A DNA stretch of 63,033 nucleotides, counting the filler, from Craspedostauros australis (taxonomy: Eukaryota), in NCBI GenBank assembly GCA_030167865.1. It is 6 parts of 6 records of this genome, joined end to end, with 100 filler letters (N's around TTAATTAATTAA, not from the genome) between each part and the next. Parts side by side here need not be neighbours in the genome. Positions count along the whole stretch, not along the records: positions 52,040 to 63,033 come from JALAGF010005358.1; 5 more parts are not named here. One strand, 5' to 3'. Below the pieces are notes generated by a model. The model ran no database searches. It was not told where the DNA came from and saw only the letters and a list, made by a program, of their open reading frames with translations. The translations under genes were made by a program, and so were the position numbers. Shown piece by piece: positions 28,160 through 61,404 of the stretch (its first letter is position 1; each line of letters starts with the position of its first letter).

Positions 28160-28171
28160 TTAATTAATTAA
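28160..28171. other. Artificial contig linker TTAATTAATTAA (also at 43157-43168, 46691-46702, 50180-50191, 51984-51995)
   Basis: Identical six-frame-stop 12-mer flanked by 44 N on each side at five places. Confidence 0.97.
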
Positions 28172-28215
28172 NNNNNNNNNNNNNNNNNNNNNNNNNNNNN
28201 NNNNNNNNNNNNNNN

Positions 28216-28701
28216 ACACTCATCCGTGTTGTTCACTCACTCCTCTCACATGCTCATCGACAATCACACTTGGTCAGAACATGGAGTTCTGGCACGATCA
28301 GTCCAGTCCTTCGATGTTGTTCCAGTCCGCGCTTTGTTCTCCTTCGCTGGTTCTCTGTCGGTCANGTAATCATGTTCTGGGTTCCGAGCGATTCAATCCG
28401 TGATTGCGTTCTTGCATAGATGTTTCAGGTTAACTGGTCAACCCTCATGCTTGGAACACTTCGGTGTTCCAGTCTCCCTTTCACATCCATCGTTCGCCAT
28501 ACCAGTTCGTCAATCCACTCAAACCATGTCTCACGATTAGTCTGTCCGTCGTCCGTCATACTCTTGACACACAGAGGAGGAGGTCCACAATAGACTTGGG
28601 AGCGTGTCCGACTTTGATAGATCGGTGAGTCTAATTTTGGTATTATGGGAGGTGCGGCAATCTAGAATAATACGACATAGTCGTACCCTCGATTCCTGAC
28701 A
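28216..28701 (-). mobile_element. LTR, family B (5' part), inserted into the protease region of the family A element
   Basis: Minus strand starts TGTCAGGAATCGAGGGTACGAC...ATTGCCGCACCTCCC, as at 57626, 59164 and 60027. It interrupts the pol frame right after ALFNVRDI. Confidence 0.85.
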
Positions 28702-28823: not shown

Positions 28824-31355
28824 CTACTCCATGGCTGCTGCAGCTATTTCATCGTCGAAGCTGCCGTCGTCTTCGTCTTCGTGAACTCCGTCTTCGTTGT
28901 ATGGATGATGGTGATCCTTATCATCCATGTCGTTGGGTAGTTGCGCGTAGTCCGATGGAATCGTACTGTTCCGATGTGATCCTGTGGCTGGATCATAAGG
29001 GTTGACGCGTGGTCGTTCGCGTAAGAGCACGCGCATGCATCCTCCAAGGATGTAGTGCAGATCCGTCTCTGGGATCGTTTCTGTGTCAGCCGCTTCCAAT
29101 ATGCGGTTGATGACGACCGAATTGGCGAGAATCTCTTCGATTGATCTGAAGTTCTCGGATAGGATGGATCCCATCATGTTCACCCATATTGGTCTGAGCA
29201 CTCCTTGTGCGACTCCTGGGAACAGTTTCACTCCTGCTTCCATTACGGCATCGAAGATGAGTTGCTTCTGGATTATCAATGCTGTTGTCATTCCGTATGG
29301 GATGGTATCATGACGATGGAGGTAGTTTGAGTTGTTGGGACTCTCAATCGGTGGGAATTCGATATTCCCTGGGTAGACAACACGCTCGTTTGGGTTGAAG
29401 CTGTCGTCTGGATGATTTTCGGTTTCGTCGCTGTCATCTTCATCGAAGATGCCTGATCTGTTGTTCCCCGCCACTGGAGGAGGCGGGGCCGCGCCGCCGT
29501 TCGTTTCGTCTTGGCCTCTATCATTCTTGTTGATCTCATCGTCGGCCTCTTCACTCATGGCCTCTTCGATGTCGCTATCGTTGGCCTCGTTGCCCATCTT
29601 GGCTCCGTTGCCGTATGGACCGATCAGGTCGTGCGCGTTGAAGCAGCATTCATAGCTCACTTCGCGTCTTGGATCCACTTCGTGGACGATTGGCTCTTCG
29701 CTGGGCCACTCCGGGACGATCTCATCGTCCTGCACTTCGTCGTCACTCCTGACGCACTCGAAGTTATCGAAGAAGGAGTCTTTGATGTAGTTGTCAGACA
29801 CCAACATGCAGAGCAGCATGTCCTTTGCCAAGAGTACCATCTCGTGCCCGCTCTTGTCGTGTCCTTCCGTTGCTGTGTTGGCCTGTTCGTCGGCCTTCTT
29901 CTTCTCGTTGAACTTCTTCTTTCGGCACTCCGCCTCGCGATGTCCGAAGATGCCGCAGTAGTTGCACTTCCCGTTGAAGCCGGTTCCCTTGTTGCGCTTT
30001 CCGTTCATTTTGTTGTTGTTGTTGTTTTTCTTGTTGTTCGGTTTCTTGCGTTCTGGGCAATCGGCGGATCTGTGACCATACACACCACAGTTGTGGCAGG
30101 TCCCCTTGAAGTTACCGGTGCTCGTGAAGCCGGTATTGTTGCTCTTCGCGTTGCTGTCTTGGAAATCGTCGATGTACGCCTTGCCTCCTTGATGAGTGGC
30201 ATGTGCTGTGCGGAGTACTCCTCTGATTGCATTGATGGTGACTACGTCTGGATTGAACATGAGTTGATGTTGGAAGTTCACGATGTGAGTTTTGTATTCC
30301 ACGCTCACCGTGCTGAGGATTTGCATGATCATCTCCTCGTCCGTGATCTCGTACTTGACATCGTGGAGACGCGATCGTAGACCCTCGAGTCGCGTGATGT
30401 AGATATCGGGGTCCGAGTCTCTCTTCATCTTTTCGTTGTTGAATTGACGCTTGAGTTTGATCTTCGTCACCGCATCGGATGGTCGGAACTTCTCCGCGAG
30501 AACGTTCCACGCTGCGTGTGGATCTCCTTTGGGATAATCGTCGGAGACGCATTGGTTGATGTACTGGATGGCCTGCTTGTCCTTTCCTTTCTCTGCATCC
30601 ATCATGAGGATCAGATTGCTGAAGCAGTCGCATCCCAGCTCGTAGATCTCCTCCATCGCTTCCTTGNNNNNNNNNNNNNNNNNNNNNNNNNNNNNNNNNN
30701 NNNNNNNNNNNNNNNNGAAGCAGTCGCATCCCAGCTCGTAGATCTCCTCCATCGCTTCCTTGTCTTCATCGGTGGCTGCCGCGATCTCGCTCACTGTTGG
30801 TATCTTGGTCTTGCCCAACATCACGTCTCTTGTCTTCTGTGCACGAGCGTATGCCTTCGCTTGGGACTCCCATGCGCTGTAGTCTTCTTGTTCACCGCTG
30901 AATATCGGCGCCTTGATGCGTCGCTTGTTCATGTTGGCTGATGTTGCCATGTTGGTTCGTTGTTTCGTTGTTGGTGCGCTCGCGCCCTTGATTTCCGTTT
31001 GTTTCTGTGTTGTCGATTCTTCGATTTTCGCTTGTTGTTTCGCGGAGGTTATTTTGCTCACAAATTCTCCTCCTGGTGGTGTCTCACTTTTCCCACTCTG
31101 TTTGGCTGTGCGAATGCTCTCCGTCACACCAGTCTCCTCTTGTTTGACCGCCTTGAGAATCCTCTTCTCTTCACGGTGTAGTCTTGCAGACCGTTCCTCT
31201 TCGGACTCGTCGATCGCGCTTGCCTCTGCGCCTGATAGGACAGTAGCCACGGCTGCTTCCTTCTCTTGTCGTGGTGGAGTCTCACTCGCACCTTCTTGTC
31301 TCTTGATAGTCGGGTTGGACAGAGGGATGTCTCTCAGTTCCTCTTCCTCGCTCAT
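28824..31355 (-). CDS. Copia gag polyprotein, ending at a premature TAG
   Basis: PIFSGEQEDYSAWE, AWNVLAEKF...KLKRQF, knuckles CHNCGVYGHRSADC and CNYCGIFGHREAEC. The TAG at 28824-26 is CAG in the copy near 47704. Confidence 0.9.
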   Translation of the reverse strand: MSEEEELRDIPLSNPTIKRQEGASETPPRQEKEAAVATVLSGAEASAIDESEEERSARLHREEKRILKAVKQEETGVTESIRTAKQSGKSETPPGGEFVSKITSAKQQAKIEESTTQKQTEIKGASAPTTKQRTNMATSANMNKRRIKAPIFSGEQEDYSAWESQAKAYARAQKTRDVMLGKTKIPTVSEIAAATDEDKEAMEEIYELGCDCFXXXXXXXXXXXXXXXXXKEAMEEIYELGCDCFSNLILMMDAEKGKDKQAIQYINQCVSDDYPKGDPHAAWNVLAEKFRPSDAVTKIKLKRQFNNEKMKRDSDPDIYITRLEGLRSRLHDVKYEITDEEMIMQILSTVSVEYKTHIVNFQHQLMFNPDVVTINAIRGVLRTAHATHQGGKAYIDDFQDSNAKSNNTGFTSTGNFKGTCHNCGVYGHRSADCPERKKPNNKKNNNNNKMNGKRNKGTGFNGKCNYCGIFGHREAECRKKKFNEKKKADEQANTATEGHDKSGHEMVLLAKDMLLCMLVSDNYIKDSFFDNFECVRSDDEVQDDEIVPEWPSEEPIVHEVDPRREVSYECCFNAHDLIGPYGNGAKMGNEANDSDIEEAMSEEADDEINKNDRGQDETNGGAAPPPPVAGNNRSGIFDEDDSDETENHPDDSFNPNERVVYPGNIEFPPIESPNNSNYLHRHDTIPYGMTTALIIQKQLIFDAVMEAGVKLFPGVAQGVLRPIWVNMMGSILSENFRSIEEILANSVVINRILEAADTETIPETDLHYILGGCMRVLLRERPRVNPYDPATGSHRNSTIPSDYAQLPNDMDDKDHHHPYNEDGVHEDEDDGSFDDEIAAAAME

Positions 31356-31437: not shown

Positions 31438-32238
31438 TGTTGGCAAGTTCCGCTCACGATAACCTACGATCGTGGAAGATGGTGTTGGTTGATAGTTGTT
31501 CGTTTGCTATTTCATTACTTGGTTACTCCGATCCTCTTGGTGTACACCCGTTCTCTTGCCCGATGCTCTTGGTGCTTCAATCTGTTTTGTAGATTTGGTC
31601 TCCGACTATGAGTCGGTGTAAGAGATGCTCTCTCGCTGCTCCTCGTATTCTCTCTCTCTCTCTCTCAATATCGTGTGCTTCGTGCTACATGATACTCCGC
31701 GTTCGATGCGTACTCCGCATTCAACACTCCGTTCGTTCAGTACTGGCTTCTACTCCATGAGTACTTACCATTTGAAGTTCACCTTCTGTATCCATGATCC
31801 TGATGCCCTTTGGTCATCGGATCTTCGCCTCCTGCTCTGACTTGGAGACAGCTGTCGACGTGGTGACATGTTGACATCCTGTTGACGTCAGTAGGCGTCC
31901 TTCTGCTCTCCAGATGTCANNNNNNNNNNNNNNNNNNNNNNNCTGTCAGATGATATCGTCATCTGAGGTTTAGTTGGGAAGTACCTCGAGATTCTCTTGG
32001 TACCATTGATGGATGGACGGACGATATTTCTAATTCTCTCAGAAATCGTCGATTGCAAATTTCCTCCAGAGATTCTGCTCATTTTCGTGTGTTCCATTTC
32101 TGCTGTAATTCTGACGAATCACAGCATACTATCGACACGAGTGTAGTTGTACCGTCCAAGTGCGTATGAGAGAATAACGGGTGAACGATGCACATATACA
32201 CGTACATCTTGACATATACTCACATATACATCTCGACA
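31438..32238 (-). repeat. 5' LTR of family A (~801 bp, TGTCGAGA...TGCCAACA)
   Basis: TG...CA termini, ends 83 bp upstream of the gag ATG, and matches 585-1363. The inner boundary is inferred from its CCAACA end, which resembles family B. Confidence 0.8.
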
Positions 32239-32621
32239 CTCCAAGTCAGAGCAGGAGGCGAAGATCCGATGACCAAAGGGCATCAGGATCATGGATACAA
32301 GAGGTGAACTTCAAATGGTAAGTACTCATGGAGTAGGAGCCAGTACTGAACGAACGGAGTGTCGAATGCGGAGTACGCATCGAACGCGGAGTATCATGTA
32401 GCACGAAGCACACGATATTGAGAGAGAGAGAGAGAATACGAGGAGCAGCGAGAGAGCATCTCTTACACCGACTCATAGTCGGAGACCGAATCTACAAAAC
32501 AGATTGAAGCACCAAGAGCATCGGGCAAGAGAACGGGTGTACACCAAGAGGATCGGAGTAACCAAGTAATGAAATAGCAAACGAACGACTATCAACCAAC
32601 ACCATCTTCTACGATCGTAGG
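32239..32621 (+). repeat. 3' half of a family A LTR in the opposite orientation
   Basis: Reverse complement of 31463-31847 with a few substitutions and a shorter CT tract. Abuts the LTR terminus exactly. Confidence 0.9.
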
Positions 32622-32959
32622 CTTCCAATCATGGAACTTGCCAACAACCATCGCCGCACATTCGCAAGAGTCTGCAGGCACCATACCATACACAGGCGTT
32701 CTGGCCTATTCTTTGCGTTATATCGCTGTATGAAGCGATGGCGTTGGCAGCAACGAGCACTGAGCATCTCTTGGCGCCGTACGGGCGTTGCAACGCCTCA
32801 TAAAAGCAATCCCTGGCTGCCGAGCATCGCATTTTGCAAAATTGAGTAAGAGCGAACGTTTGCCACACGCTCTGATTGCATCGCCATCGCCAACGCCACC
32901 CATCCATCCATTTTTTGCCAACTAAGTTTCGTTCCTCCAATCCAACCAACGTCCCGAAC

Positions 32960-33755: not shown

Positions 33756-33864
33756 ATGCGAACGTGCAGCGCAGAGCGGTTCAGCTCAGTTCGGTTCGGT
33801 CCGGGGCGTGCAGACAACCACAGCGATGGCAGATAATGTTCCGTGTGGCGCTCCACCAATACAA

Positions 33865-34101
33865 GTACGTGAATGTGTACGTGAATGTGTACGTGAATGT
33901 GTACGTGAATGTGTACGTGAATGTGTACGTGAATGTGTACGTGAATGTGTACGTGAANNNNNNNNNNNNNNNNNNNNNNNNNNNNNNNNNNNNNNNNNNN
34001 NNNNNNNNNNNNNNNNNNNNNTACGTGAATGTGTACGTGAATGTGTACGTGAATGTGTACGTGAATGTGTACGTGAATGTGTACGTGAATGTGTACGTGA
34101 A
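33865..34101. repeat. 12-bp minisatellite (GTACGTGAATGT)n
   Basis: Perfect tandem units on both sides of an N gap; true length unknown. Confidence 0.95.
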
Positions 34102-34631
34102 CGTGCACGATTCATACCCGCCCACTGCACTATACTCTGTTGTACGAGCTGCTCTGCTGCGCNNNNNNNNNNNNNNNNNNNNNNNNNNNNNNNNNNNNNN
34201 NNNNNNNNNNNNTGCTCTGCTGCGCTGGATGACATGCACTTCTTCGGAGACTCATACAGTTTTGATTTTCTTTTGGCAATGGAAGACATTAAAGTAGAGC
34301 AGTATAGCATTGTGTTTGAAGTGGAGGACCATGCGCATTACACCAATAGGGAGTATCCTTTGCAGAAGTCTCCCTCTCAGGGACTTCCCTATCAAGTTGA
34401 CCGACTCTTTCGTGTCCCCTTATCTCATCAATTTCATTCTGAATCTTGCAGCGCCTGCAGCTTCATGCTTGTACTTGGTCATTATTTTCGACTATCTCGA
34501 GAGCATTACTTTCTATTGGTAGAGTGATCGAGTTCGAGCCAATCTTGATCCTGTCGGTTCATCCATTTCTCGCTTCTGTGCACAACCCACCCCATCTCTT
34601 CCGCCACCTTCCCCTTCACCCTGCCGCGACT

Positions 34632-36329
34632 TCAGGTCATTGTACGATTCAGCCTGTCCAAGAGATCGTCCCAAGTTGACACGCCTTCAAACAAACGATC
34701 CAGATTCACTTCACAGAATTCACGCTTCTCGTAGACGGTGCGGTAGAATGCCTCGCGGTGTGCCGCTTCACCGTCAGGAGATGCATACCACTCAGGCATC
34801 CACTTCTCCTCCAACGTCAGCGACATGTTCAGGAGCTCTTGCAATTCATCCTCCGGCGGACAATCCAGCGGGAGATCCGCGAAGGTCTTGTTCAGAACAC
34901 TCGTATAATACTCCGCGAACTCGACTGTCACAGCCATCCTGGTTCGGTTGGCTTGTGTGGCTTGGCTGATCAAGCCACGCTTTGCTGCAGTAAAGATTAT
35001 CTTGCTGATTGCCAACCATATCATTGATCGGACGTTGGTCTTGGTGGGTTTCTCTCGTTGCTCGAGGTATTCACATGACTTGGGAGTGTCTGGAATGGTG
35101 TCGCACAGCAGCTGCTCAGAGATGTGCCGTTTGCTGTGGAAGTTCATGATGTGGATGGGATAGCCACTTTCTCTCCACGATTGGATCATTCCGTCTATGA
35201 AGACAAAACCTCCCGAAAGAGTCATGATCATGGGACCATCACCGAACGGCTTTGAACTGCTCTCCATCCGCTGACGAATAACTTTCCACAGGTTTGTGTC
35301 AAATACTTCACCTTTCATAGGCCAAGGAATTGAGGGCTGGCCTACTTTTGCCTGCCTCCCGACGTTTTGCTTCCAAGAGCTGAGCATCCAGTCAAAGGCG
35401 CGTCGGTAGGTGATGACCACCGACGCATCCCAGTCTTGGAGGAAGTGGCGCAAGTTGTTGAAGTACGTCGGACTCTGGAATCGTGTTTTGTCATAAAAGC
35501 GGGAAATGCCCTGGAGCTCGCTGCTGTACACCAACGAGATGTTCTGCTCTTTGGCCGCATCAAGTACTCGTTGTGTTTCCACTAATGGGGCTGGCAACTC
35601 CGGTGGCGGTGGCTGCCATGGTGAACCGAATACTGCTTGATCTGTGCTGTTCATGAGCGCTTGCTGTGCCAGTTGGTTCCTGTACTTGGAGTAAGGCTCA
35701 TGCAGGGCCACTTCGTGGAACAACTGTTCGATTGAACACAATTGCAGCTGTTGATCCGTAAATGGTTTTTTTCGGCATTTTAATCCTGAATCCCAGTAGT
35801 GGTCGCTGGCGAGGATCTGCTTGTTTCTGAGTTCCAACAAGTCCCTTTGCAGGGAGGTCGTGGCAGTCTTCAGTGGTCCCAAATGGAACACTATCCGGTT
35901 TTTCTTTTCTTTGGGAGCAGCCTTCATTGGTGGCTCCGCTGGTGGCTCCGTTGGTGGCGCTGTTGTCGAATCCATTCCTGATACATCTGTGCGAACGTTG
36001 GCTTCTGCGTGTTCCACAATGGGAGATGATCGCAGTCCCTCAATGATTGCAGATTCTGTCTTTGCATCACCCATTGTTGAGGATGAACACCGCCATGGTG
36101 AGATCTGCATCACGAAGCATTGGAAGGCCATGAAGGAATATGCCACTATTGCGAGTCTCGCGGTCTTGTTCGCCGTAGTCGACTGGCGACGACTGGTTCC
36201 ATCGCCATTGTTCATCTGTTTCGCCGAGGGAGTTGCGACCCTGCTATGGCCGGTTGCCAAGGTAGCCTTGTGGTTGGAGTGCTTGAGTCCACCATACTCC
36301 GCATGAAGTCCACCCGAAGAAGGATCCAT
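34632..36329 (-). CDS. Type II membrane sulfotransferase-like P-loop protein
   Basis: N-terminal TM helix, 5'-PSB-like FHLGPLKTATTSLQ, YSSE, 3'-PB-like ITYRRAFDWMLSSW. Confidence 0.8.
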   Translation of the reverse strand: MDPSSGGLHAEYGGLKHSNHKATLATGHSRVATPSAKQMNNGDGTSRRQSTTANKTARLAIVAYSFMAFQCFVMQISPWRCSSSTMGDAKTESAIIEGLRSSPIVEHAEANVRTDVSGMDSTTAPPTEPPAEPPMKAAPKEKKNRIVFHLGPLKTATTSLQRDLLELRNKQILASDHYWDSGLKCRKKPFTDQQLQLCSIEQLFHEVALHEPYSKYRNQLAQQALMNSTDQAVFGSPWQPPPPELPAPLVETQRVLDAAKEQNISLVYSSELQGISRFYDKTRFQSPTYFNNLRHFLQDWDASVVITYRRAFDWMLSSWKQNVGRQAKVGQPSIPWPMKGEVFDTNLWKVIRQRMESSSKPFGDGPMIMTLSGGFVFIDGMIQSWRESGYPIHIMNFHSKRHISEQLLCDTIPDTPKSCEYLEQREKPTKTNVRSMIWLAISKIIFTAAKRGLISQATQANRTRMAVTVEFAEYYTSVLNKTFADLPLDCPPEDELQELLNMSLTLEEKWMPEWYASPDGEAAHREAFYRTVYEKREFCEVNLDRLFEGVSTWDDLLDRLNRTMT

Positions 36330-36688
36330 CGTCGAGAATGCTGCCTTGGACTTGTGAGTTGTCGATGCTCGTGTGGTTGGTGTTGTTGGTGTGGTTGGTG
36401 GCTCCAGCGAGAGCGGCGTTCGCTAGTGTGTGGCGACTTTTGTTGTTGCGTTTGTTCCTGTCGTGATGCGATGCGAGCATGCGCGAAACCCTGTGGGCGA
36501 GAAAGCACTGTTTCATTTATTTCGCTTCGCCGTTTCTACATTTTTCGCAACTTTGCAACGTGTTGTCATTGGCGGTGTCTCAGGGGTTCCATTCCACGCG
36601 CCTGACTTGCTCTTCTGACGTCATGAGATCTGCGGCATTGAGCTAATCCATAGACACATAGCTTTTGTCTGCGTTGGGTGGTAGTGCT

Positions 36689-37654: not shown

Positions 37655-37875
37655 CGTACGGATCAGACGCGGGCATGAACCAACAAACGCACGTGTCCAC
37701 AACGCTCGCCTGGCAGAGAGGAAAACAAAGTCAACACACGAAAACACAAACAAACAAACATCACACAATCACCACAACAAACCCAGTCACATCCAATAAC
37801 TCGCATAATATAGCGCACGCATAGTTGCTCGTACACGTGCAAACATCGAAGAACCTCCACATTGAGCTCTTCATC

Positions 37876-39627
37876 ATGGATGCCCATTCCAACAGAGTGG
37901 ATGGAATGACAGGCACGCGCAAGCGACTCAACCAGCCGAACCGAAACACTGTCGTCACACAGCGCCATCATGGCAGCAACCCAAATCTCTCTGGCCAACG
38001 GATGGACAATGACAACAGAATCGAAGGCCGCCAACAACCAAGGAAGCGCCGATCCATCACGACAGCCACGATGGTGGCGGTACTTGCTGTGGTGGTCGTT
38101 TTCTCTTGGTTCCTGGTATCCTATGAGATGCAGAGCATGAATTGGCAGACTTCGTCCTTCGCGATGGATGAGACACTGGCAGCAGCCGCTACCGTCGAGA
38201 TGGAGGGCTCATCTTCGACTGTCAAAGAGATCCAAGCTGACATGCGCATGGGCGTGCCAGGAATGGATACGGCAACGCTTCCACCGACTGAGAATATTCT
38301 CAAAGGAAGGAAGAACCGGCTGGTGTTTCATTTTGGTCCACCAAAGACGGCCACGACCTCGCTGCAACAGGACTTAGTGGAACTCAGAGAAAAGGAAATC
38401 CTCGCCGAAGACCACTATTGGGATTCAGGAATACTGTGCTCGAAAGATCCATTTACAGCTGAGCGCCTCGATTTATGCTCTTTGAATGTCGCATTCCACC
38501 GGGAAGCCATGCTTTGGGCATATACCAGGTACAGGAAGCGAATGAAAAGGCAGCAGTTGTTGATGAACAACCATGCACGCGCAGACGGCACACCCGCAGA
38601 AACATCAGCGCCGCAGCCGCGATCGCGATCGCTACCGAAGATACCATCCCAGCTGGTGGAAACACAAAGGCTACTTGACGCAGCAAGGCAACAAAACATC
38701 TCGCTGATATACAGCAGCGAATATCGGGGCTGCAGGTTAAATTACGGCCCAGCCGGGTTGTTCCAGAGCCCTGAGTACTTTGCCAACCTGCAACACCTGC
38801 TCAGAGGCTGGGATGTATCCATAATCGTCACCTACCGACGTGTCTTTGACTGGATGATCAGCACTTCGAAGCAAATATTTGGGATGGCGATAGAGTATAA
38901 CAGGTCAGCATCTCAGTGGCCCCGTGAAAATGGCACAATGCATGGAAATGCTTGGTCGTCGATACGGGCATGGATGAACATCAGTTCACACCCGTACAAG
39001 GGTGGCCCCATCACAATGACTATTTCGAACAATTACATTTTCATGGATGGCATCATCTCATCATGGAAACAAAGTAATTTCCCTATCCACATCATGAACT
39101 TCCATGACAAACGAGGTATCTCGAAGCAGTTCCTCTGCGACTTCATCCCGGACGCGCCCAGCTCGTGCGAATACCTACAGCAAAGGAAGACGACCACTCA
39201 CAGCAATTCCAGGACAATGATCTTTTTCATGCTCAACAACATTGTGTTTGCTGCAGCGCAACGAGGCTTGATCAGCGAAGCTGCGCAGGTCAACAATACC
39301 AGGCTAGACACGTCTATTTGGCTGCAGAACTATTTCAACGACGTCCTGAACAAGACCATGGTAGATCTTCCCTTGGATTGTCCGCCGAATCATGAACTGG
39401 AGGAGCTTCTGGAGATGTCACTTGAGATCGAGAAGAAGTGGATGCCGGAATGGTATGCCTCTCTTGATGGTGAAGTGGCACATCGCAAGGCATTCCATCG
39501 CACTGCGTACGTGAAGCGCGAATTCTGCAGTGTGGACGAAGAGCGATTGTTCGAGGGTGTTGTCACGTGGGGCGGACTTTTGGAAAAGCTGAACCGAACA
39601 TGGGGGGTGAGATGGGAAGCATCATAA
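37876..39627 (+). CDS. Type II membrane sulfotransferase-like protein, paralog of 34632-36329
   Basis: FHFGPPKTATTSLQ, YSSE, VTYRRVFDWMIS, and shared DLPLDCPP and EKKWMPEWYAS. First ATG of ORF 37825-39627. Confidence 0.82.
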   Translation: MDAHSNRVDGMTGTRKRLNQPNRNTVVTQRHHGSNPNLSGQRMDNDNRIEGRQQPRKRRSITTATMVAVLAVVVVFSWFLVSYEMQSMNWQTSSFAMDETLAAAATVEMEGSSSTVKEIQADMRMGVPGMDTATLPPTENILKGRKNRLVFHFGPPKTATTSLQQDLVELREKEILAEDHYWDSGILCSKDPFTAERLDLCSLNVAFHREAMLWAYTRYRKRMKRQQLLMNNHARADGTPAETSAPQPRSRSLPKIPSQLVETQRLLDAARQQNISLIYSSEYRGCRLNYGPAGLFQSPEYFANLQHLLRGWDVSIIVTYRRVFDWMISTSKQIFGMAIEYNRSASQWPRENGTMHGNAWSSIRAWMNISSHPYKGGPITMTISNNYIFMDGIISSWKQSNFPIHIMNFHDKRGISKQFLCDFIPDAPSSCEYLQQRKTTTHSNSRTMIFFMLNNIVFAAAQRGLISEAAQVNNTRLDTSIWLQNYFNDVLNKTMVDLPLDCPPNHELEELLEMSLEIEKKWMPEWYASLDGEVAHRKAFHRTAYVKREFCSVDEERLFEGVVTWGGLLEKLNRTWGVRWEAS

Positions 39628-41230: not shown

Positions 41231-43292
41231 GATGGTGCCGATGATGATGGTGATGAACACAGAGGTGGCGGCAGTATTGGCGGGGTACGTGGTTGGGATA
41301 GGGTATATGAACTGGATGTATTCTGCGGCCTATAGTCGTAGAATAGGCAGCTATCACTGTGTTGATTTCGTTGTTGGTTTGCTTTGCTCGGCGTTGATTT
41401 TATGAATCAATGTGGCTGAGACCGGGCAGGATGAGTCCTCAAGTAACAACAACTCGAGAATACAATGAGTTCAATGGTGACAAATACACTGTGATGTGCG
41501 AAGTTCCTCTACTCAACGGTCGAGCAACACATGATTGGCGCGCTTCGATAGTCTCACAGGTTAACTTTCCTTGCCATCAAGTCCATGTGAGATGTAAGAG
41601 CCCCCCGAGTGAGTCGACCTGCACTCCGTTATTGGCCTCCAGAAATTTTCTCTCCTACATACTAACCAACCACATATTTGTAATCCTTGTAGGTCTAATA
41701 CAAATAATTAACCGATGGATTTTTGAGTTAGATCCTATTTTAAGTTTTATGGACCGATGGATATGCGCAATTTTCGATCTCTTTCGGGTTTCAGCCTTTG
41801 ACAACCGACTACATCGATCCAATTTAACCCTTTGCTGTTCTTTGTTTCAGCGACATTGTTCTGATTTTGAATTGTTTAGTCTCTTTTTCAGGTGTTCGGA
41901 TGGGACCACCCAACAGTCCATCCACGATAGCACTAGTTGTAGAATGTTGGGGGAAGCGGTGAATCCGCTTTTACATTCATTCCATCATGTGCTTATCCAA
42001 TCCGTCATCGACGTCACGCAACTAGATGCTTCGTCATGAAACACCAATGATATCACGATGCGAAACATCGTCAGGTTTGCTTCTTCGTGGCGAAGTGGTT
42101 GAGTGGGGTTGGTACTCCTCGAGTGTTTTGTGTCGTGGTCTTTTTGGACAGTCGAAACAACTGGAGGTAAATCTCCACATCCCCCAACATGTGAGGCTGG
42201 TCGAGAGCGGCAAACTCGACACACCAAGATGAAAATGGAGCCACACCAAAAAAATACCACAATGGCCGTCGAACGGTATGCTTGGCGCCGCACCAACCAG
42301 CCGGCCAATTCAAGATCCAAGCACATCGCCGTCATCTCCACGCAGCGTTTGGTGGGTGGACGAACGGAGGCGGGAAGAGGGGTTGATTTGGGGCCGTCGT
42401 AGGCCCCAGAAATACGGCCACAATTTGGCTCCAAATCGGCTCGTTGGTTTTGGCCTGTGTACGCCACACACAGGTCATATCAGCGCCTACAGATGGGCAA
42501 GACGCCTCAGGAAGGGCAAGAAGAAGGCCCCCTCGAAGTTCGAGGCTCGCAGAGCACCGGGAAGGTCTCCGCGCGGAGAGAAAGGTGGTTTTTGGGAGTT
42601 TTGGTTGGGGCTCGCCTGGCACCAGTCGCGTGGCTTTGGCGGTGAGGGGCGATGGGAAGACGCCCCTCAATCGCCAAGGTACCCATACAAGATGCGTGCG
42701 GCATCATTTGAAGATGCACGTCGTGAAGCGTGCGCCACAGAGACGGTGTACAAGAGGCTGCAGCCGACCATATCTGCAGAATGGTCGTTGTTGGTGGGAG
42801 CAAAAAATGCCCAACCACATCATCATATGGAGGTGTACCGCGTCAGCCATGCACTCCCAGCCCATTCTGGATGCATCTGCCTGTCGCCATGGAGCGTGGT
42901 AATGCACGAGGGGCACAAGGAGGGGCTGCAAGGATCGTATGGATGAGGTATGGATCCGTATCCATACCGCATCCGGATTGAAAATGATTTTTCGAAATCG
43001 CTCTGTTTCAGTGTGTGGCTGCATTGCTGCATGCAGAGCCGATGTCTGAGGCCAACCTTCATGGAGCGGATAGCTGGGGGGTATGCAGAGCGAATGATCT
43101 GATCAGTTTGCTNNNNNNNNNNNNNNNNNNNNNNNNNNNNNNNNNNNNNNNNNNNNTTAATTAATTAANNNNNNNNNNNNNNNNNNNNNNNNNNNNNNNN
43201 NNNNNNNNNNNNACTCACCAACCTACTGCACTACCACGGATTGATCACCCTTCGGCGTTCAGTAAGTTCACCTCGTTTTCATTATCGTTCTA

Positions 43293-46070: not shown

Positions 46071-46746
46071 GGCGAGGACTCAAGAAGAAGGTGAAAGGCG
46101 TGAAGTGGTGTAGAAGGCGTTGTTTTGTTGCTAGGTTACCCCTGAGCAAGCGTTGCGNNNNNNNNNNNNNNNNNNNNNNNNNNNNNNNNNNNNNNNNNNN
46201 NNNNNNNGAAAGGCGTGAAGTGGTGTAGAAGGCGTTGTTTTGTTGCTAGGTTACCCCTGAGCAAGCGTTGCGGGAAGCGTTATCCGAAGCGGGGAGTGTG
46301 ACAATTCTGTCGTCTTTTCCAAATTGTGCGCATTTCGGGTGTTGCTTGTCGCATCGCTTCTCTGCTTGTTGTTCCTCTTCTCTCTTTCTCCTTTCTCTTG
46401 CAGGTTCCTCAATCTCCTCGTGTTCGACCTCCTTCGTTTCTCATTTGCTCGAAGCGGGTCTTGGTCCGGCTTCACTATCCGATTGCATCTTCTCTGATGG
46501 GTTTGCAATTGGTGTCATCGATAGCGCATTCCGTGTTTTTGAGTTTTTGTTTGTGTGTCGATTTTGTCGCCGCGGGCGATCATTTTGTGAGCTCCGCATT
46601 GCCATCAAATGGCCGTTGTCGCACATGGTTCGAATTGTCCTTACTTNNNNNNNNNNNNNNNNNNNNNNNNNNNNNNNNNNNNNNNNNNNNTTAATTAATT
46701 AANNNNNNNNNNNNNNNNNNNNNNNNNNNNNNNNNNNNNNNNNNNN

Positions 46747-49700
46747 CCAATCATCCACGAGGTGGATCCAAGACGCGAGGTGAGCTTCGAATGCTGCTTC
46801 AACGCGCACGACCTGATCGGTTCATACGGCGACGAAGCTGAGATGGACGACGAGGCCAGCGATAGCGACATCGAAGAGGCCATGAGCGATGACGACGACG
46901 ACGCCGACGAGGACGGCGCAGATGAAGACGACGAGGCGAATCGCGACGAAATGCCTCCTCCCCAAGTTGGGAGATACGAGAGAACGGGAANCTTCATCAA
47001 CCAAGGCCAAGGCGAAACGAACCGCGCAGCGGCGCCACCTCCTCCAGCGGCGGGGAANAACAGATCGGGCATCTTCGACGAGGATGACAGCGACGAATCC
47101 GAGGACGACAATCATCCAGACGACAGCTTCAATCCAAACGAGCGTGTCGTCTATCCAGCGAATATCGACTTCCCAGATATTGAGGATCCCAACAGTGTCG
47201 ACTATCTGCTCCGTCACACTGTCACACCAAACGCAACAGCAACAGCACTGACAATCCAAAAACAGCTCATCTTTGACGCCGTAATGGAAGCGGGGATGCG
47301 ACTGTTCCCAGTAACTACACGAGGAGCACTCATGCCAATATNNNNNNNNNNNNNNNNNNNNNNNNNNNNNNNNNNNNNNNNNNNNNNNNNNNNNNNNNNN
47401 NNNNNNNNNNNNNNNNNNNNNNNNNNNNNNNNNNNNNNNNNNNNNNNNNNNNNNNNNNNNNNNNNNNNNNNNTACATCCTTGGAGGATGTATGCGTGTAC
47501 TCTTGCGAGAGCGATCACGCGTGCACCCATACGATCCAGCCACAGGATCACACCGAAGCAACACGATTCCATCGGACTACGCGCAGCTATCCGATGAGAG
47601 CGACGACGGACATCACGCGAACCCATGGAACGAACATGGAGTCCACATCGACGAAGAAGACGAAGACAACTTCATGACCGATACAGCTGCAGCAGCTGTG
47701 GAGCAGCTCCACGAGCTGAGCACCAAGTACAAAGACAAGGTCAACAAGGACACCTGGCTCGCCGACAGTGGAGCTTCGTGTCACATCGTCAACTCAGACG
47801 CCGCTCTCTTCAACGTGCGGCACATCAAGTCATTCGTCCAAGTGNNNNNNNNNNNNNNNNNNNNNNNNNNNNNNNNNNNNNNNNNNNNNNNNNNATGGAA
47901 CGAATATGGAGTCCACATCGACGAAGAGGACGAAGACAACGTCATGACCGATACAGCTGCAGCAGCCGTGGAGCAGCTTCACGAGCTGAGCACCAAGCAC
48001 AAGGACAAGGTCAACAAGGACACCTGGCTCGCCGACAGTGGAGCTTCGTGTCACATCGTCAATTCAGACGCCGCTCTCTTCAACGTGCGGCACATCAAGT
48101 CATTTGTCCAAGTGGGAGACAGCACGAAGCTGGACTCTCCCAAAATGGGATCCATTCGCTTGAAGGTCAAGCAGCGAGACAACACTGGCCACNTCATCCG
48201 GCTNGATGANGTGAAGTACACACCNAAAATGGCGGTGAACCTTTTCTCCACGAACAAGGCTCTGTACAACGGTTACCAGCTTGGTAGCAACGGCATTCTG
48301 ATGGACATCATCAACGGATCCGGAACGAAGATTGTATTCGACCGAGTCTTCCCCACAGCCAACGGATTTATCACGGGAGTGCAGATGCATCCCATCATGC
48401 CAACGAACGACGACAAGGCTTGCACAGCCCTCGTTAAGAACCCATGCAAGGAGATCAGCGCAATGAACTTGCATCGAATGCTCGGCCACGCGCCACTCGA
48501 AACCATGAAGCGAACAGCTGCCAAATACGGATGGAAGATAATCGGCGAGATGCCGGTATGTCGCGACTGCGCGGTTGCGAACGCAAGAGTGAAAAACATT
48601 CCGAAGGCAACCATTCCGAGAGCAACTCGCCGCGGCGAACGACTTTTCATTGACATTAGTTACACTAAACACATAAGCTTCGGAGATAAACGCTACTGGA
48701 CCCTGATCGTGGACGACTGCACGGATCACTGCTGGAGTTTCTTTCTCAAGAACAAAAGTGATCAACCAGGATACATCAAACGATTCATGCAAACGATCAA
48801 GTCACAGACTGGTGACCAACAGATCATCTTCCGAGGTGACAACAGCGGAGAGAACAAAACCACGCAGGATATTNNNNNNNNNNNNNNNNNNNNNNNNNNN
48901 NNNNNNNNNNNNNNNNNNNNNNNNNNNNNNNNNNNNNNNNNNNNNNNNNNNNNNNNNNNNNNNNNNNNNNNNNNNNNNNNNNNNNNNNNNNNNNNNNNNN
49001 NNNNNNNNNNNNNNNNNNNNNNNNNNNNNNNNNNNNNNNNNNNNNNNNNNNNNNNNNNNNNNNNNNNNNNNNNNNNNNNNNNNNNNNNNNNNNNNNNNNC
49101 GGCAACGATCCACCATATGCGGATGCACTCCGTACATTCGGAGAGGTGGGTGTTGTGAAGACTACCTACGGCGGGATTACCGCGAAACTCAAGAATAGAG
49201 GAGAAGAGATGGTGTTCATCGGATATGCACGCCAACATGCATCAGGGGTCTACAACATGTACAGACCATCGACCAAGCCACTGATCTGTTCTTGCGACAT
49301 CAAGTGGCTCAATCAATCATACGGACAGTTCCGTGGCTGGGCACCAGCACCGAACATATCCAACGAAACAGGAACAACGGACGCAGACGGCTTCACAACC
49401 ATCGGACGGAAGGGAGCAACGCCAAGGATGGCAACGCGTCAAACATCGGAAGCGAAGAGAGTATCTTTCGCTGACAGCAACATGTACTATATCCTATCGG
49501 ACAGCGACGATGAGGATAATGAGAACGACGGAGCAGTAACTCAACTAGTCCATAACGACGAGGAAGATCGGAGCGAATCCAATCATGAGGATGACGAGAT
49601 CACACCATCCAGTGACGAAGCCGATGATGACACAGGCGTTACTCCTCCAAACACACCAGCGAGGTCTACACGTGACACACCATCCAGATCTCCACCAAAC

Positions 49701-50135: not shown

Positions 50136-50235
50136 NNNNNNNNNNNNNNNNNNNNNNNNNNNNNNNNNNNNNNNNNNNNTTAATTAATTAANNNNNNNNN
50201 NNNNNNNNNNNNNNNNNNNNNNNNNNNNNNNNNNN

Positions 50236-51939
50236 AAGGAAGCAGCCGCGGCTACTGTCCTATCAGGCGCAGACGCAAGCGCAATCGACGAGACCGAAGA
50301 AGAACGGTCTGCAAGACTATATCGTAAGGAGAAGAGGATTCTCGAGACGATCAAGCAAGAGGAGACTGGTGTGACGAAGAGCATTCGCACAGCCACACAG
50401 GGTGGGAAAAGTGAGACACCACCAGGAGGAGAATTTGTGACGAAAACAATCTCCGCGCAACAACAGGCGAAAATCGAGGAATCGGCAACACAGAAACAGA
50501 CGGAAATCAAGGGCGCGAGCGCACCAACGACGAAACAACGAACCAACATGGCGACATCAGCCAACATGAACAAGCGACGCATCAAGGCGCCGATNNNNNN
50601 NNNNNNNNNNNNNNNNNNNNNNNNNNNNNNNNNNNNNNNNNNNNNNNNNNNNNNNNCACAGAAGACGAAGGACGTGATGTTAGGCAAGACCAAGGTGCCA
50701 ACGATGAAGGAGATCGCGGCAGCCGCCGATGAAGACAAGGAAGCGATGGAGGAGATCTACGAATTGGGATGCGACTGTTTCAGCGATCTGATCCTCATGA
50801 TGGATGCAGAGAAAGGAAAAGGGAAGCAGGCCATCCAGTACATCAACCAATGCATCTCCGACGACTACCCTGAAGGAGACGCACACGCAGCGTGGAAGGT
50901 TCTCGCGGAGAAATTCCGACCATCCGATGCGGTGACGAAGATCAAACTCAAGCGCCAATTCAACAACGAAAAGATGAAGAGAGACACGGACCCCGANNTT
51001 TACATCACGCAACTNGAGAGNCTACGATCGCGTCTCCACGATGTCAAGTACGAGATCACGGACGAGGAAATGATCATGCAGATTCTCAGCACGGTGAGCG
51101 TGGAATACAAAACCCACGTTGTGAACTTCCAACACCAACTCACGTTCAATCCGGAACTGGTTACCATCAACACGATCAGAGGAGTACTCCGCACTGCATA
51201 CGCTACGCACAGAGGAGGCAAAGCATACGTCGACGATTTCCAAGACAGTAACACGAAGAGCAACGACACCGGCTTCACAAGCACCGGTAACTTCAAGGGT
51301 ACTTGNNNNNNNNNNNNNNNNNNNNNNNNNNNNNNNNNNNNNNNNNNNNNNNNNNCCCGACATCTACATCACGCAACTCGAGAGTCTACGATCGCGTCTC
51401 CACGATGTCAAGTATGAGATCTCGGACGAGGAAATGATCGTGCAAATCCTCAGTACGGTGAGCAACGAATACAAAACTCACATCGTGAACTTCCAACACC
51501 AACTCACGTTCAATCCAGAACTGGTTACCATCAACACGATCAGAGGAGTACTTCGCACAGCATACGCCACGCACAGAGGAGGCAAGGCATACGTGGACGA
51601 CTTCCAAGACAGCAACACGAAGAGCAACGACACCGGCTTCACAAGCACCGGTAACTTCAAGGGTACTTGTCACAACTGTGGCGTGTATGGCCATAGATCC
51701 GCCGATTGCCCAGAACGCAAGAAATTGAACAACAAGAAAAACAACAACAACAACAACAAAATGAACGGAAAGCGCAACAAGGGAAGCGGCTTCAAGGGAA
51801 AGTGCAACTACTGCGGCATCTTCGGACATCGTGAGGCGGAGTGCCGAAAGAAGAAGTTCAACGAAAGCAAGAAGAACAACGAACAAGCCAACGCGGCTAC
51901 GGAAGGACACGACAAGAGCGGGCACGAGATGGTACTCTC
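50236..51939 (+). mobile_element. Copia gag, family A, second copy (gapped)
   Basis: Close protein match to 28824-31355, including both CCHC knuckles. Confidence 0.92.
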
Positions 51940-52039
51940 NNNNNNNNNNNNNNNNNNNNNNNNNNNNNNNNNNNNNNNNNNNNTTAATTAATTAANNNNN
52001 NNNNNNNNNNNNNNNNNNNNNNNNNNNNNNNNNNNNNNN

Positions 52040-55815: not shown

Positions 55816-57625
55816 CGTCACCTCCCTGCTCTGACCGTACTTGTGTGAGTGCTTGTCAAGAGTTGTTGTGGCAGCGAAATGATTGAGATTGTGGTTGAGA
55901 TTGTGGTTGTATTTATGACTGTGTCACTCCGCAACAGAGGAGAGGAGAGTAAAGTAGAGTAGGTCGCAGCGCAGAGTGCGCGTATCTGAACGTGTTGGCT
56001 TTGTGGATTGTGTTTGATCTTGTGGAGCCGCAACAAGTGGTTTGTGCAAGGCTTCACTTCATGTACGGATGGTGTGTCTTGGGCATGAAGTGCTTGTTCC
56101 GTACGATCTGCTCATGCAAACATTGTGAGAGAACCAGACAGAAGAAAACAGAGCACCGTTTCGCTAGTTTGTTGGACAAGGCCTTCCTGAATCATAGAGA
56201 GAGATCGCGACGCCGCTGCGAGTGCGAGACATGAGCAATTATGCTCTTCGAAGCAACTTGGGAGAGTCAAACGTGTGAACGGTTCGGTGAGTTGACGAAG
56301 CCAGCGGCTGAACGGACCACACGACTTTTATCAATGCATACACACAAACGCAAAGCGCAACATGCTCTTTGGTATCGTTTCCGCCTTCGTGCAACAAAAA
56401 CAGGAATCCTCATGTTGTTGGCACAATCGCCATGTTCCATGCGAAACAGTGATTCTTGTTCGCCTTTATCCATCATCACCAACGATCGTTCGTGAATACA
56501 AACTGAACTCACATCGTGGATACAAACAACAACACAGCCTCCTTGTGAACGAACTTCTTGTTTTCTGAGAGGTTGAACATGACAGCGACCATACCACTTT
56601 TTCTTGTTCTCAAGAAGGACCAAGATGATGCTGAGCGTTCCAAGGATGTGTCGAATGTGGTCCCGTGTGATGGTTGGGTGTCTTGCCACCTTTCCAAAGA
56701 GTTGTTCGGCACAATCGAACGATACTTCCGCCGCCTCGCCGCAGCGCGGGAGAATCCTGAAGTGTCTGTCCTCTTTAGCACGCTGACATCCCATGACGCA
56801 TCAATAGGCCTGCCAAAGAAAAGATGGGCTGCAGATACGTCGTCGCAGAGGATGCATGTGAGACATGGATACGACGTCTGTCAAGAGAAACGAATAAGCC
56901 TAAAGGTTGAGGGAAATATGATTCAAGGTGGTTAATCCAGTTGAGATTGCGACCTCGCACTGTGCGTAGACTGCATAGTAGAGTAGAGTAGAGTAGAGTA
57001 GTGCGGAGGAGCGCCAGGAAGAGCGCACCGCACAAAGTACGGTACGTACGGTCCTGAAATCTCGTCGAACAAAAACGAGACCAGCGCACCCTGATCCAGG
57101 CACATTTGTGGCTCGCAGAGCGGAGTTGAGTGCTCTGGGAGGCTTGTTTAAACCGCAGTACCAAATGCAGTACTAATTTATTAAAAGACAAAGCACATCG
57201 AGATTAGCCATCTTAGGATCAATGTGTGTGGACGGCATCACCAATCAACCAATACTTGTTGAGAATCCAGAGTAATAGTAGTATTCTAAGTTGTTGTTAG
57301 ATCGTGCTGTTTTTGAACTGAGAGATCAATCGTATTGTTTCCTCTCAACCCCAATTCAATAGCAAGCAAAATCCATAGCAGCACAACATGATCATATGCG
57401 TGCCCATGGTTGCTTTCATCTATATCATCATCTTGCTCTCTCTCTCTCTCTCTCTTGCCATCTCATGGTGCATTTCAGTAGCGTTGTTTCTCTTCTACAC
57501 TCATGCAGGACATCTTGTAGCCATGCAGGTACCTTGCCATGGGTCTCATGTCGATCGATCCCACATCATCATCAATACCTCAGTATTCCTCCCATGCTGC
57601 CACCACATTTTCTGTGATTGTCTTT

Positions 57626-59609
57626 TGTTAGGAATTGAGGGTACGACTTTGTCGTAATACCCGTGATTGCCGCACCTCCCAACATTGCTCGTCACAGCTT
57701 TGAATATTATTCGTCACATGTTCGGAGACTATTTGTCACACCTTTGTATACCATGTCATTATGACTATGACTAAGCATACGGACGCGATTGATACCTGTA
57801 TAACCGCGAGGAGGGTAGCCTGTCCTCTGGTAACGTAAGGATGACACCCATGGCGGATCAGGAGGTCCCGATACCATGCCAACCATGGCAACCATCCAGA
57901 CGACGACGTCGATCAGAACAGCATGTCCATGGGTGTTGGAAATCCGGGGTTAGGTAGTAGATTAATCTGTTATCAATCTGTACCAATTTAGAACTGTGAG
58001 AACAAACTCCTTGACTCTCCAATTCCAATTCAGCAGCAAGTGTAATCNNNNNNNNNNNACCATGATCATGCACTTGTCCATGGTTGCTTTCATCTGCTTC
58101 ATCAGCTTGCTCTCATGCTCTCTTCTGCAGATTCATCATGCATCCTCGTGGTGATTTGCATCTTCTACATTCGAGCAGCATCTCTCATAGACGCACAGGT
58201 ACCTTCAGCATGGGTCTCAGTCTGATCGATCCCACTGGACCTTCGGTTCCTCAGTATTCCTCCTGCGCCATCATCACATACTCACCGGTCATGTTCATTC
58301 CATGTCGCGTCGTCAATCGTGNNNNNNNNNNNNNNNNNNNNNNNNNNNNNNNNNNNNNNNNNNNNNNNNNNCAATCTGTACCAATTTAGAACTGTGAGAA
58401 CAAACTCCTTGACTCTCCAATTCCAATTCAGCAGCAAGTGTAATCTGTAGCAGTTTACCATGATCATGCACTTGTCCATGGTTGCTTTCATCTGCTTCAT
58501 CAGCTTGCTCTCATGCTCTCTTCTGCAGATTCATCATGCATCCTCGTGGTGATTTGCATCTTCTACATTCGAGCAGCATCTCTCATAGACGCACAGGTAC
58601 CTTCAGCATGGGTCTCAGTCTGATCGATCCCACTNGACCTTCGGTTCCTCAGTANTCCTCCTGCGCCATCATCACATACTCACCGGTCATGTTCNTTCCA
58701 TGTCGCGTCGTCAATCGTGCTCTTGAGCGGATAGGGGCATCGCTTCCGTTTCTCTTTCTCAGAGAAGCGATCCCTTGTCCGTCGATGTGCGTCGACATGT
58801 CTGACACATATCGACAGTTTTGTCCATAGTCTTGGCTCATGTGCGAATACATCCCTAGAGGTCGATCCATAGGTTCGCCCTCATTACAGCGGTGGTACAT
58901 GGATAGGNNNNNNNNNNNNNNNNNNNNNNNNNNNNNNNNNNNNNNNNNNNNNNNNNNNNNNNNNNNNNNNNNNNNNNNNNNNNNNNNNNNNNNNNNNNNN
59001 NNNNNNNNNNNNNNNNNNNNNNNNNNNNNNNNNNNNNNNNNNNNNNNNNNNNNNNNNNNNNNNNNNNNNNNNNNNNNNNNNGACCTCGTCGAGTTGTGAA
59101 GATATTATTGGGAGGTGCGGCAATCATGGGTATCTTAGTAAAAGCGTACCCCCGATTCCTGACACATGGGCAAATGACGCACCTTCTTCAGAGGACAACA
59201 CACGCCCCTCCTGCGGACAAGAACATCCGCAGGTTTGGAACATCAGAAAGGATCAGAACATCCACAGGTTTGGAACATCACCAAAGGTGACATCGGCTAT
59301 GAGACGATGGTGTCATGAGGATCAACNNNNNNNNNNNNNNNNNNNNNNNNGCTCAGGACTGCAGATCCCTACCATGCAAACGTAGACAGCTACGACAGTG
59401 CAGAGACAAGGAAGCAAGAACAGAGCATGATGAATAAAGGGGGAAGCACCTAAGAGACAACAGGACGCCCCGTGTCGTTACCGCGACAGATGCCTGCCAA
59501 GAAAACGAAAACGGAAGAGAAAGTGAGATTGTGCTCACAGTTCTAAAACGGTACAGTTTCTAACAGCAGATTAGAATTTAGTACTAACTATAACCCCGGA
59601 TTTCCAACA
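57626..59609 (+). mobile_element. Middle family B solo LTR with 6-bp TSD GTCTTT
   Basis: TGTTAGGAATTGAGGGTACGAC...CCCCGGATTTCCAACA. GTCTTT at 57620-25 and 59610-15. Confidence 0.88.
57934..59164 (-). mobile_element. Inner family B solo LTR with 6-bp TSD CATGGG
   Basis: Minus strand TGTCAGGAATCGGGGGTACG...CCCCGGATTTCCAACA. CATGGG at 57928-33 and 59165-70. Confidence 0.88.
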
Positions 59610-61404
59610 GTCTTTGTCACATGTCATGTCACCATTTGTGCTCTTGGGTGACTGAGGGATCGCCTCCATTTCTCTTCCTCAGTGGTTCTCCCTTTTGGGT
59701 GATTCCGGAGTGTCTCTTTCCATCGAGGCATGTTGACTTGTTAGAGATTTATTGTTTGTATCATTCATAGTCTTGGCTCATGCGCAGATGCATCCCTTGT
59801 GGTTGGATCCCAGGTTCGCACTCATTGTCGTGATAGACCATGGACAGACTCTGTTGCAGGGCATGACTGGGTGTGATGCCAGTCACAGATGGTCATCTGA
59901 GGTAGGACATGCTACAAGGTGGTCCGAGTGTGATCAACAATAGTTGAATCTATTGAGTCATCATGATGTATTGAGAGGTGCGGTAATCTTAGGTATCTTG
60001 ACAAAGTCGTCCTCCCGATTCCTCACAGTTTTCACAAAAGGGTCGCAGGGCCATGTAGCACCAGTACCACAGGTGGTTCCGTCCATTGGGATGGGAGCAT
60101 AGCAAAGGTCTACAATACAGGTTCCACGTCTTGCTGTTCCCTGGATCCGGCTGTCTTAGCCGGACATCGAGATTCCCATGGAAAGAGTTCCAATGACCTG
60201 GTCATTGGAATCCTTTTTCTTGGATCCGAGGGCCCAAAGATCTTCTTCAATGACTCATGCTTGCTCCAAACGTGGCTATCCAAGATGTGGTCCGGACCAA
60301 TCCGAGTGAGAGTGAGTCATGAGTGCCAGGAAATCCTCTCCTAACCTAAATGCTAGTTTAGCGTATTAGCATCCCAAACACAACATTGCATAGGTTTTAA
60401 TGCAAAGGTGTATAACTGGTACCAATTTGCAAGCAATGACGACACCAACAACAGCGATCGCGACAAGTCAAAGAGTGTTTTAGTCTTGGATGTTGCGGTA
60501 GATACTGATATGCCACACTTATTGAAATAGTGCCGACTGAATCGACTGGACCTTCCAACAGTACGATCACGAGGATACTCTGCGATGTGATGTTCATCAG
60601 GTGTTCCGATTCGCTCGTGACCTCGATACATAGGACTCAAAGTAGCCAAACAAAGATACGAAAACGCGTGCAGTTTTCGCGCGTTCGTTGGCAAACGGCC
60701 GTCGCGGAGGCGGGCGTTCCACTCTTCGCTCCACCCAGACGTTGTCCTGCCTTTTTGTCATCGACGATCAGGATCCGAAAAAGCTGCAGCACGGATCTTG
60801 TCTTCACGGGAGCGTTTTCGCCCATGTCACTTTGGGAGGCAGTGGATGTGGCACAAGGGAGGTCGGTCCAAACAAGAAACGGCCGCGCCATCAACAAGGG
60901 GCACTTTGGCACAGGGATGCATCTCTGTCGCTCGTCCAGTCTTGACTTTGATGCCATTCTCTCACCCGCCAGAGGGCAAGGCCCCCAACCTCTTGCTTGT
61001 TGGTGTGAAGATGTCATCAAGATCTGATGAGACGTCACAGTTTGTTTCGAAGCGGAAATGGCGCGAGCGGAATGAGAGGCGACGCTTTTTGGAAACAAGT
61101 CGCGCGATACCCGCCTCTTTCTGTTGGGTGGTCGACAGCGCAACAACCAAAAACAGACAATCAATCAAGCAAACAAGGAAATGCCATCATGCTTTTTTTG
61201 TTTCGCTATCAACAGCATCATGTGGCACCAACAGCGATAAAATCAAGTGACAGGGCCTCACTCCCTCAGCACTCCCAACTTCGCGGCTCCTGGCGATCTC
61301 GCGACAATCTTGTGGCAATCCACGCGCTGCTTTGCTCAAAGGTGAATGATCATTCTGCAAGAGAAGTTCGAAGGTCATAACATTGCCACCTTGGCCGAAA
61401 TCGA

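Follow-up and report, generated by a model that had tools for sequence, protein, structure and literature searches.

Within a 63,033-nucleotide stretch of the genome of the eukaryote Craspedostauros australis (NCBI GenBank assembly GCA_030167865.1; the whole stretch is called the window), which is made up of six contigs joined end to end, three long terminal repeats (LTRs) that we call B-type lie one inside the other in the last contig (52040-63033, JALAGF010005358.1). We interpret this locus, with a probability of roughly 0.6, as an ordinary nest that arose when three LTR retrotransposons of the Ty1/copia type, related but distinct, were integrated one after the other; the 6-bp target-site duplications (TSDs) show that integrase was at work. 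An initial sequence-only reading had described the locus as a three-tier nest of same-family solo LTRs in alternating orientation and had suggested that the family may home to the middle of its own LTR and then collapse to solo LTRs. The nest exists in the sequence as described, with the assembly caveats given below.

The nest was read over positions 56900-60400, and the flanks of each unit were compared by script at word lengths k = 3-9. The outer LTR runs on the minus strand from 57257 (TGTTGAGAATCC) to 60027 (...CCTCACA), the middle LTR on the plus strand from 57626 (TGTTAGGAATTG) to 59609 (...TTTCCAACA) and the inner LTR on the minus strand from 57934 (TGTTGGAAATCC) to 59164 (...CCTGACA); this boundary reading reproduced the coordinates, the three tiers and the alternating strands of the sequence-only reading. 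All three nested units start with TGT and end with ACA, and they carry the TG...CA ends with a short terminal inverted repeat that are expected of solo LTRs; the visible 5' end of a fourth copy elsewhere in the window likewise starts with TGT. The middle unit is flanked by GTCTTT on both sides and the inner unit by CATGGG on both sides, each pair being identical at k = 6 alone, in agreement with the exact TSDs previously assigned to these two units. The chance of two exact 6-mer matches at fixed positions is, by arithmetic, about (1/4096)^2. For the outer unit no flank match was found at any k = 3-9 (AATACT vs GTTTTC), leaving the middle and inner units, and not the outer one, with the 4-6 bp TSD by which a solo LTR is recognized.

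De-nesting was done by removing the inner units with one TSD copy each, together with a 398-bp artefactual duplicate, and gave lengths of 781 bp for the outer, 747 bp for the middle and ~833 bp for the inner LTR. The inner LTR is ~833 bp and not 1231 bp long because the 398-bp stretch was read as a scaffolding duplicate. The TSD of the middle-into-outer insertion occupies positions 413-418 of the 781-bp outer LTR and that of the inner-into-middle insertion positions 303-308 of the 747-bp middle LTR; both insertions are antisense to their target, as had been proposed with offsets of ~412 and ~308 bp. When the middle LTR and one TSD copy are removed, the restored outer LTR aligns with the inner LTR free of gaps across the joint, and 4/4 nest junctions lie within uninterrupted sequence.

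The relatedness of the three units is clearest at their ends. The four B-type copies share a conserved 5' block of ~57 nt (81% mean column identity), a 3' block of ~85 nt is also conserved among B-type LTRs, and the 17-nt motif GATTRCCGCACCTCYCA has four occurrences in the window (0.02 expected), each of them 40-56 nt from the 5' end of a B-type LTR. These end blocks and the motif bear out the claim that the termini are common to all three units. Over the full length, the outer and inner LTRs are 68% identical, compared with a maximum of 53% after shuffling, whereas the middle LTR reaches 50-51% identity to the outer and 45% to the inner LTR, which is the level of the shuffled controls (mean 44%, maximum 52-53%). 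Members of one transposable element (TE) family share 80% identity over 80% of their length. All three nest pairs remain below 80% identity over most of the LTR, and because the identities fall under this rule the nest LTRs are not one family; the description "same family" holds for the termini (the first ~57 bp and the last ~85 bp) and fails for the interiors (68%, 50-51% and 45%). By these alignments the B-type LTRs belong to related lineages whose integrase-facing ends are conserved and whose interiors have diverged.

Since none of the B-type units in the window borders a coding core, the identification of these units as LTRs is drawn from their anatomy, namely the TG...CA ends, the 6-bp TSD, two unlike end blocks and the CCAACA 3' end. 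BLAST of the three LTRs against the window returned one further copy, which is truncated, and no direct pair around a gag-pol core; a B-family coding region was not found within the window. Among the motif matches listed (at least 118 metagenome stretches and seven viral ones), BLAST with the LTRs matched 2/125 loci, over 24-26 nt only, and these two metagenome or viral loci are chance matches, not relatives.

The assembly around the nest requires some care. The nest contains N runs at 58048-58058 (11), 58322-58371 (50), 58908-59081 (174) and 59327-59350 (24), plus three single Ns. The stretch 57974-58371 recurs as 58372-58769, the spacing of 398 being the sum of 348 bp and 50 N, and sequence preceding the gap is repeated after it at 5/7 of the 50-N gaps in the window. 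These repeats are probably unmerged contig or haplotype overlaps that make false tandem duplicates. The linkers between the contigs (Table 1) are six-frame stop linkers, and the adjacency of the window's six contigs is not physical. The "solo" status of the nested LTRs is read from a gap-rich draft assembly, in which full-length copies may have been collapsed. Collapse to solo LTRs fits the retained TSDs, but the assembler could also have merged the LTRs of full-length copies.

Table 1. Positions of the nest units, related LTRs and assembly features in the window.
Feature	Position	Strand	Remarks
Outer LTR, 3' part (LTR positions 413-781)	57257..57625	-	Colinear with inner LTR (68%) after removal of the middle LTR
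(CT)n tract in outer LTR 3' part	57436-57457		
TSD GTCTTT of middle LTR, left copy	57620..57625		Exact at k = 6 only
Middle LTR, 5' part (LTR positions 1-308)	57626..57933	+	TGTTAGGAAT terminus; conserved 57-nt 5' block
TSD CATGGG of inner LTR, left copy	57928..57933		From flank comparison
Inner LTR, true length ~833 bp	57934..59164	-	Holds artefact duplicate 57974-58371; N runs of 11, 50 and 174
Scaffolding artefact, 348-bp copy of 58372-58719 plus 50-N gap	57974..58371		96-100% identity
TSD CATGGG of inner LTR, right copy	59165..59170		From flank comparison
Middle LTR, 3' part	59165..59609	+	24-N gap 59327-59350
35-bp tandem pair in middle LTR 3' part	59215-59280		
TSD GTCTTT of middle LTR, right copy	59610..59615		From flank comparison
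Outer LTR, 5' part (LTR positions 1-418)	59610..60027	-	Outer borders without TSD
17-nt motif GATTGCCGCACCTCCCA	57665-57681, 59109-59125, 59972-59988, 28646-28662		Two changes in outer copy
Fourth B-type LTR, first 486 nt, cut by contig end	28216..28701	-	Conserved 5' end; interior again different
LTR-A, 5' LTR of Copia-A element, 801 bp	31438..32238	-	gag open reading frame 28824-31355; not alignable to B-type LTRs
Second LTR-A, 3' part (LTR positions 392-801)	32239..32646	+	Broken exactly at Copia-A 5' LTR start
50-N gaps with repeated flank	30667-30716, 46158-46207, 47845-47894, 51306-51355, 58322-58371		Repeats of 46 to 348 bp, 92-100% identity
Linkers, each 44 N + TTAATTAATTAA + 44 N	28116-28215, 43113-43212, 46647-46746, 50136-50235, 51940-52039		

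Two further nested insertions were found elsewhere in the window, both involving a copia element that we call Copia-A. Its gag (Retrotran_gag_2, 1.6e-13; zf-CCHC) adjoins LTR-A, and a second copy of the element carries Pol_BBD and an integrase SH3-like domain (SH3_retrovirus). At 32238/32239 a second LTR-A is broken, and a third copy (585-1364) places the LTR-A terminus at this very point; the inverted LTR-A arms are 95.4% identical over 414 nt (elsewhere given as 95-99%). This position is a third antisense mid-LTR insertion, into an LTR of the element's own family at a fraction of 0.49 of its length. A fold-back artefact was considered for the inverted LTR-A pair and ruled out, as the arms differ near their ends. 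LTR-A (801 bp) is comparable in length to the de-nested B-type LTRs (747-833 bp) but could not be aligned to them (39-47% identity vs a shuffle mean of 43-44%). The fourth B-type LTR interrupts the coding region of Copia-A in sense orientation, between gag and Pol_BBD, and its empty site is found at 48098/48099 in the other Copia-A copy. The window thus holds four nested events, three of them LTR-in-LTR and antisense at fractions 0.40, 0.49 and 0.53 and one in sense orientation into coding sequence.

The sequence itself shows the boundaries, the TSDs, the colinearity of the outer with the inner LTR across the joint and the kinship of the termini; the succession of insertions, the way in which solo LTRs arose and the retention of the insertions in a safe haven we infer as follows. 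A first element would have inserted in an intergenic stretch of ~3.8 kb and was then reduced to one LTR, the outer one, probably by recombination between two elements, because the outer LTR lacks a TSD. A second element with a different LTR interior would have integrated antisense into the outer LTR with a 6-bp TSD, and LTR-LTR recombination would then have left it as the solo middle LTR; a third element may have repeated the antisense insertion and the reduction to a solo LTR inside the middle LTR. In a gene-dense genome, older LTRs may retain insertions because they are sites free of selection. The alternating orientation and the mid-LTR offsets would most likely be coincidence plus a retention bias, in which recombination erases same-orientation nests of near-identical LTRs and the survivors become skewed towards antisense. 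That the window is rich in TE-in-TE events of several kinds (four, one of which went into a coding region) argues for ordinary nesting.

All P values on targeting are post hoc and refer to a locus picked for its orderly look on TE-rich contigs. The two events of the B nest by themselves are unremarkable, both in the similarity of their offsets (P=0.23) and in their shared antisense orientation (P=0.25). For the three LTR-in-LTR events, the range of offsets has P=0.042 and the uniform antisense orientation P=0.125, and at least three antisense events among the four nested ones are expected with P=0.31. Under a local null in which 3.8 kb of host intergenic DNA and the existing LTRs serve as target, two LTR hits have P=0.024-0.048. 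LTRs account for 7.8% of the bases of the whole window and were the target of 3/7 visible insertions; this tally has P=0.013 with all DNA permissive, 0.05 with 50% and 0.11-0.30 with 10-30% of the non-TE DNA permissive. We regard the three antisense mid-LTR events as a modest lead towards an LTR-centre preference. Several of these observations weigh against an interpretation as ordinary nesting. Three of the four nested events are antisense at 0.40-0.53 of an own-lineage LTR, and the offset range and the local null describe a pattern somewhat more orderly than pure chance predicts. A full-length B element with paired LTRs was not seen in the window, so that the LTR assignment is anatomy-based. 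The retention bias, moreover, would need high LTR identity and would suit the LTR-A case (95-99%) better than the B nest with its differing interiors.

The main alternative, a wider form of the idea put forward in the sequence-only reading, is that copia integrases are tethered in a central zone of the LTR, for example a promoter or nucleosome-free zone, which would direct new copies to the mid-part of LTRs like their own, with a bias in orientation and a later collapse to solo LTRs. The three LTR-in-LTR events come from two unrelated LTR families, are all antisense and lie at fractions 0.53, 0.40 and 0.49, and with the P values for offset range, local null and fully permissive tally they point in this direction; tethered hotspot integration is also established for Tf1/Tf2 via Sap1 in the passages covered of 10.1101/2021.11.29.470382. 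We nevertheless consider mid-LTR homing unlikely. It is based on n=3 events at a locus selected for its striking appearance, the P values for orientation are weak (for 3/3 LTR-in-LTR as well as for at least three of four nested events), and that for the tally climbs to 0.11-0.30 once selection is realistically allowed for. The fourth B LTR is a sense insertion whose target is coding sequence and not an LTR, and by sequence the nest does not consist of a single family. As LTR-A cannot be aligned to the B LTRs, the "same position" is a fraction of length only. Inspection by eye, with no motif search run, showed no motif shared by the three target contexts, and palindromic hexamers within 15-40 nt of the three sites are not enriched compared with random positions in the same LTRs (P=0.09-0.27). 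In plants, LTRs are the least-hit part of the element according to the passages covered of PMC6911290. A more far-reaching proposal, namely that copia-type elements prefer the central zone of own-lineage LTRs in antisense as a self-directed safe-haven strategy, used by at least two unrelated LTR families and producing stacks of solo LTRs, seems to us slightly less likely still.

An assembly artefact, in which repeat reads were joined into a chimeric nest or one or more of the "solo" LTRs are collapsed full-length elements, is improbable to a similar, if marginally greater, degree. The four N runs and the 398-bp false duplicate in the nest speak for it, as do the chaining of small contigs by 44N-TTAATTAATTAA-44N linkers, the location of Copia internal regions on separate small contigs and, in the passages covered of long-read work on diatoms, the under-representation of LTR elements in draft assemblies (PMC8147415). 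A chimera would not place exact 6-bp duplications at the LTR ends twice, on separate contig pieces, or let the outer LTR be restored without a gap, and all four junctions lie in contiguous sequence. The chance is small that the intergenic stretch itself draws integration through its chromatin or a nearby promoter, LTRs being hit by virtue of their location. Three insertions within ~6.6 kb of intergenic DNA on an 11-kb contig that is otherwise TE-free would be explained in this way; each later insertion, though, hit the preceding LTR at its centre and missed the surrounding 3.8 kb of host DNA. Neither an RNA polymerase III (Pol III) gene (Rfam, ARAGORN) nor another known landmark was found in the nest's contig, the only RNA genes in the window being two tRNA-Pro genes at 21888 and 22738 on another contig. 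Finally, we consider it very improbable that the units are non-autonomous DNA transposons that keep their ends, vary in their interiors and make a 6-bp TSD: conservation between copies is indeed confined to the ends, the extreme ends form an imperfect inverted repeat of ~16 nt and no paired copy surrounds a gag-pol core in the window, but the two conserved end blocks are unlike each other beyond ~16 nt, the TG...CA ends and the CCAACA terminus resemble LTR-A of the window's copia element, and the unit length equals that of LTR-A.

Pile-ups of solo LTRs at tRNA genes are well known for yeast Ty1 and Ty3, with nested LTRs, readable TSDs and LTR-LTR recombination; they are explained by Pol III targeting, and the yeast TSD is 5 bp long. 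The nest described here shares with them candidate solo LTRs and LTRs nested in LTRs with TSDs, but differs in that no tRNA or Rfam RNA gene lies in its contig and in its TSD (6 vs 5 bp). The position beside a tRNA or other Pol III gene that Ty1/Ty3-like targeting would predict was therefore not found. Tethered integration also holds for Ty1, Ty3 and Ty5, and the fission yeast elements Tf1 and Tf2 are of the Ty3/gypsy type. As far as covered here, the report on Tf1/Tf2 (10.1101/2021.11.29.470382) resembles our case in describing repeated and nested insertions at the same spots and many solo LTRs, and Sap1 tethering is a tested mechanism of the sort that mid-LTR homing needs, whereas B-type elements are known from LTRs alone.

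In plants, the nesting of LTR elements is non-random and "autoinsertion" into the own lineage is documented (Jedlicka et al. 2019, PMC6911290, in the passages covered). The likeness consists in new elements lying inside older copies of their own lineage; in contrast to the present case, with LTR centres as targets, a non-plant host and n=3, those passages report the LTRs as least hit and little autoinsertion for copia. A preference of maize Sireviruses for their own LTRs is not mentioned in the passages covered of PMC4728375 and PMC3414828, and it is not counted as a parallel here. In diatoms, copia-type elements are the main TEs, and the passages covered on the CoDi Ty1/copia-like elements (Maumus et al. 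2009, PMC2806351; Filloramo et al. 2021, PMC8147415) mention TG/CA LTR ends, insertion into other TEs, nested copies and TSD-less copies, all of which have a counterpart here. TSD-less copies of diatom copia-like elements are there attributed to inter-element recombination (PMC2806351). The TSDs quoted for CoDi elements are 4 and 5 bp, compared with 6 bp in the B-type nest; no LTR-centre preference appears in the passages covered of PMC2806351 and PMC8147415, and the B-type units, for their part, are known from LTRs alone. In the literature searched, which did not extend to the insertion-site supplements of PMC2806351, we found no preference for LTR centres reported for copia elements of diatoms or other protists.

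The nest is a further example of a well-known kind of transposon pile-up. It provides a clean, small instance of nested candidate solo LTRs with 6-bp TSDs that belong to an uncharacterised LTR lineage, can assist TE annotation in this genome and also warns of false duplicates in the regional assembly. If the mid-LTR antisense pattern were true genome-wide, it would add the own LTR centre to the short list of tethered LTR-retrotransposon targets and would account for the persistence of copia elements in compact protist genomes while genes are spared.

Several other features of the window were noted. The two tRNA-Pro(UGG) genes (21888-21961 and 22738-22810) lie 850 bp apart in the same orientation, the duplicated stretch being 95% identical over 87 nt. 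The host resembles a protist with densely packed genes, with long uninterrupted open reading frames for a hybrid histidine kinase, a guanylate cyclase and an AAA_16 protein, and its genome is probably diatom-like; the commonest known phylum in the nearest Atlas cluster of the AAA_16 protein is Bacillariophyta, which is a weak pointer. A 12-bp tandem repeat with the unit TACGTGAATGTG extends over 33818-34145 and spans a 64-N gap. An inverted repeat of 1.3 kb (34641-35916 / 38298-39600, 67% identity) contains open reading frames of ~600 aa (34632-36422 minus and 37825-39627 plus) with no Pfam match and may be a diverged inverted gene pair or an uncharacterised element. A 760-aa open frame on its own small contig (43797-46079, minus strand) matched no Pfam family at E 0.001.

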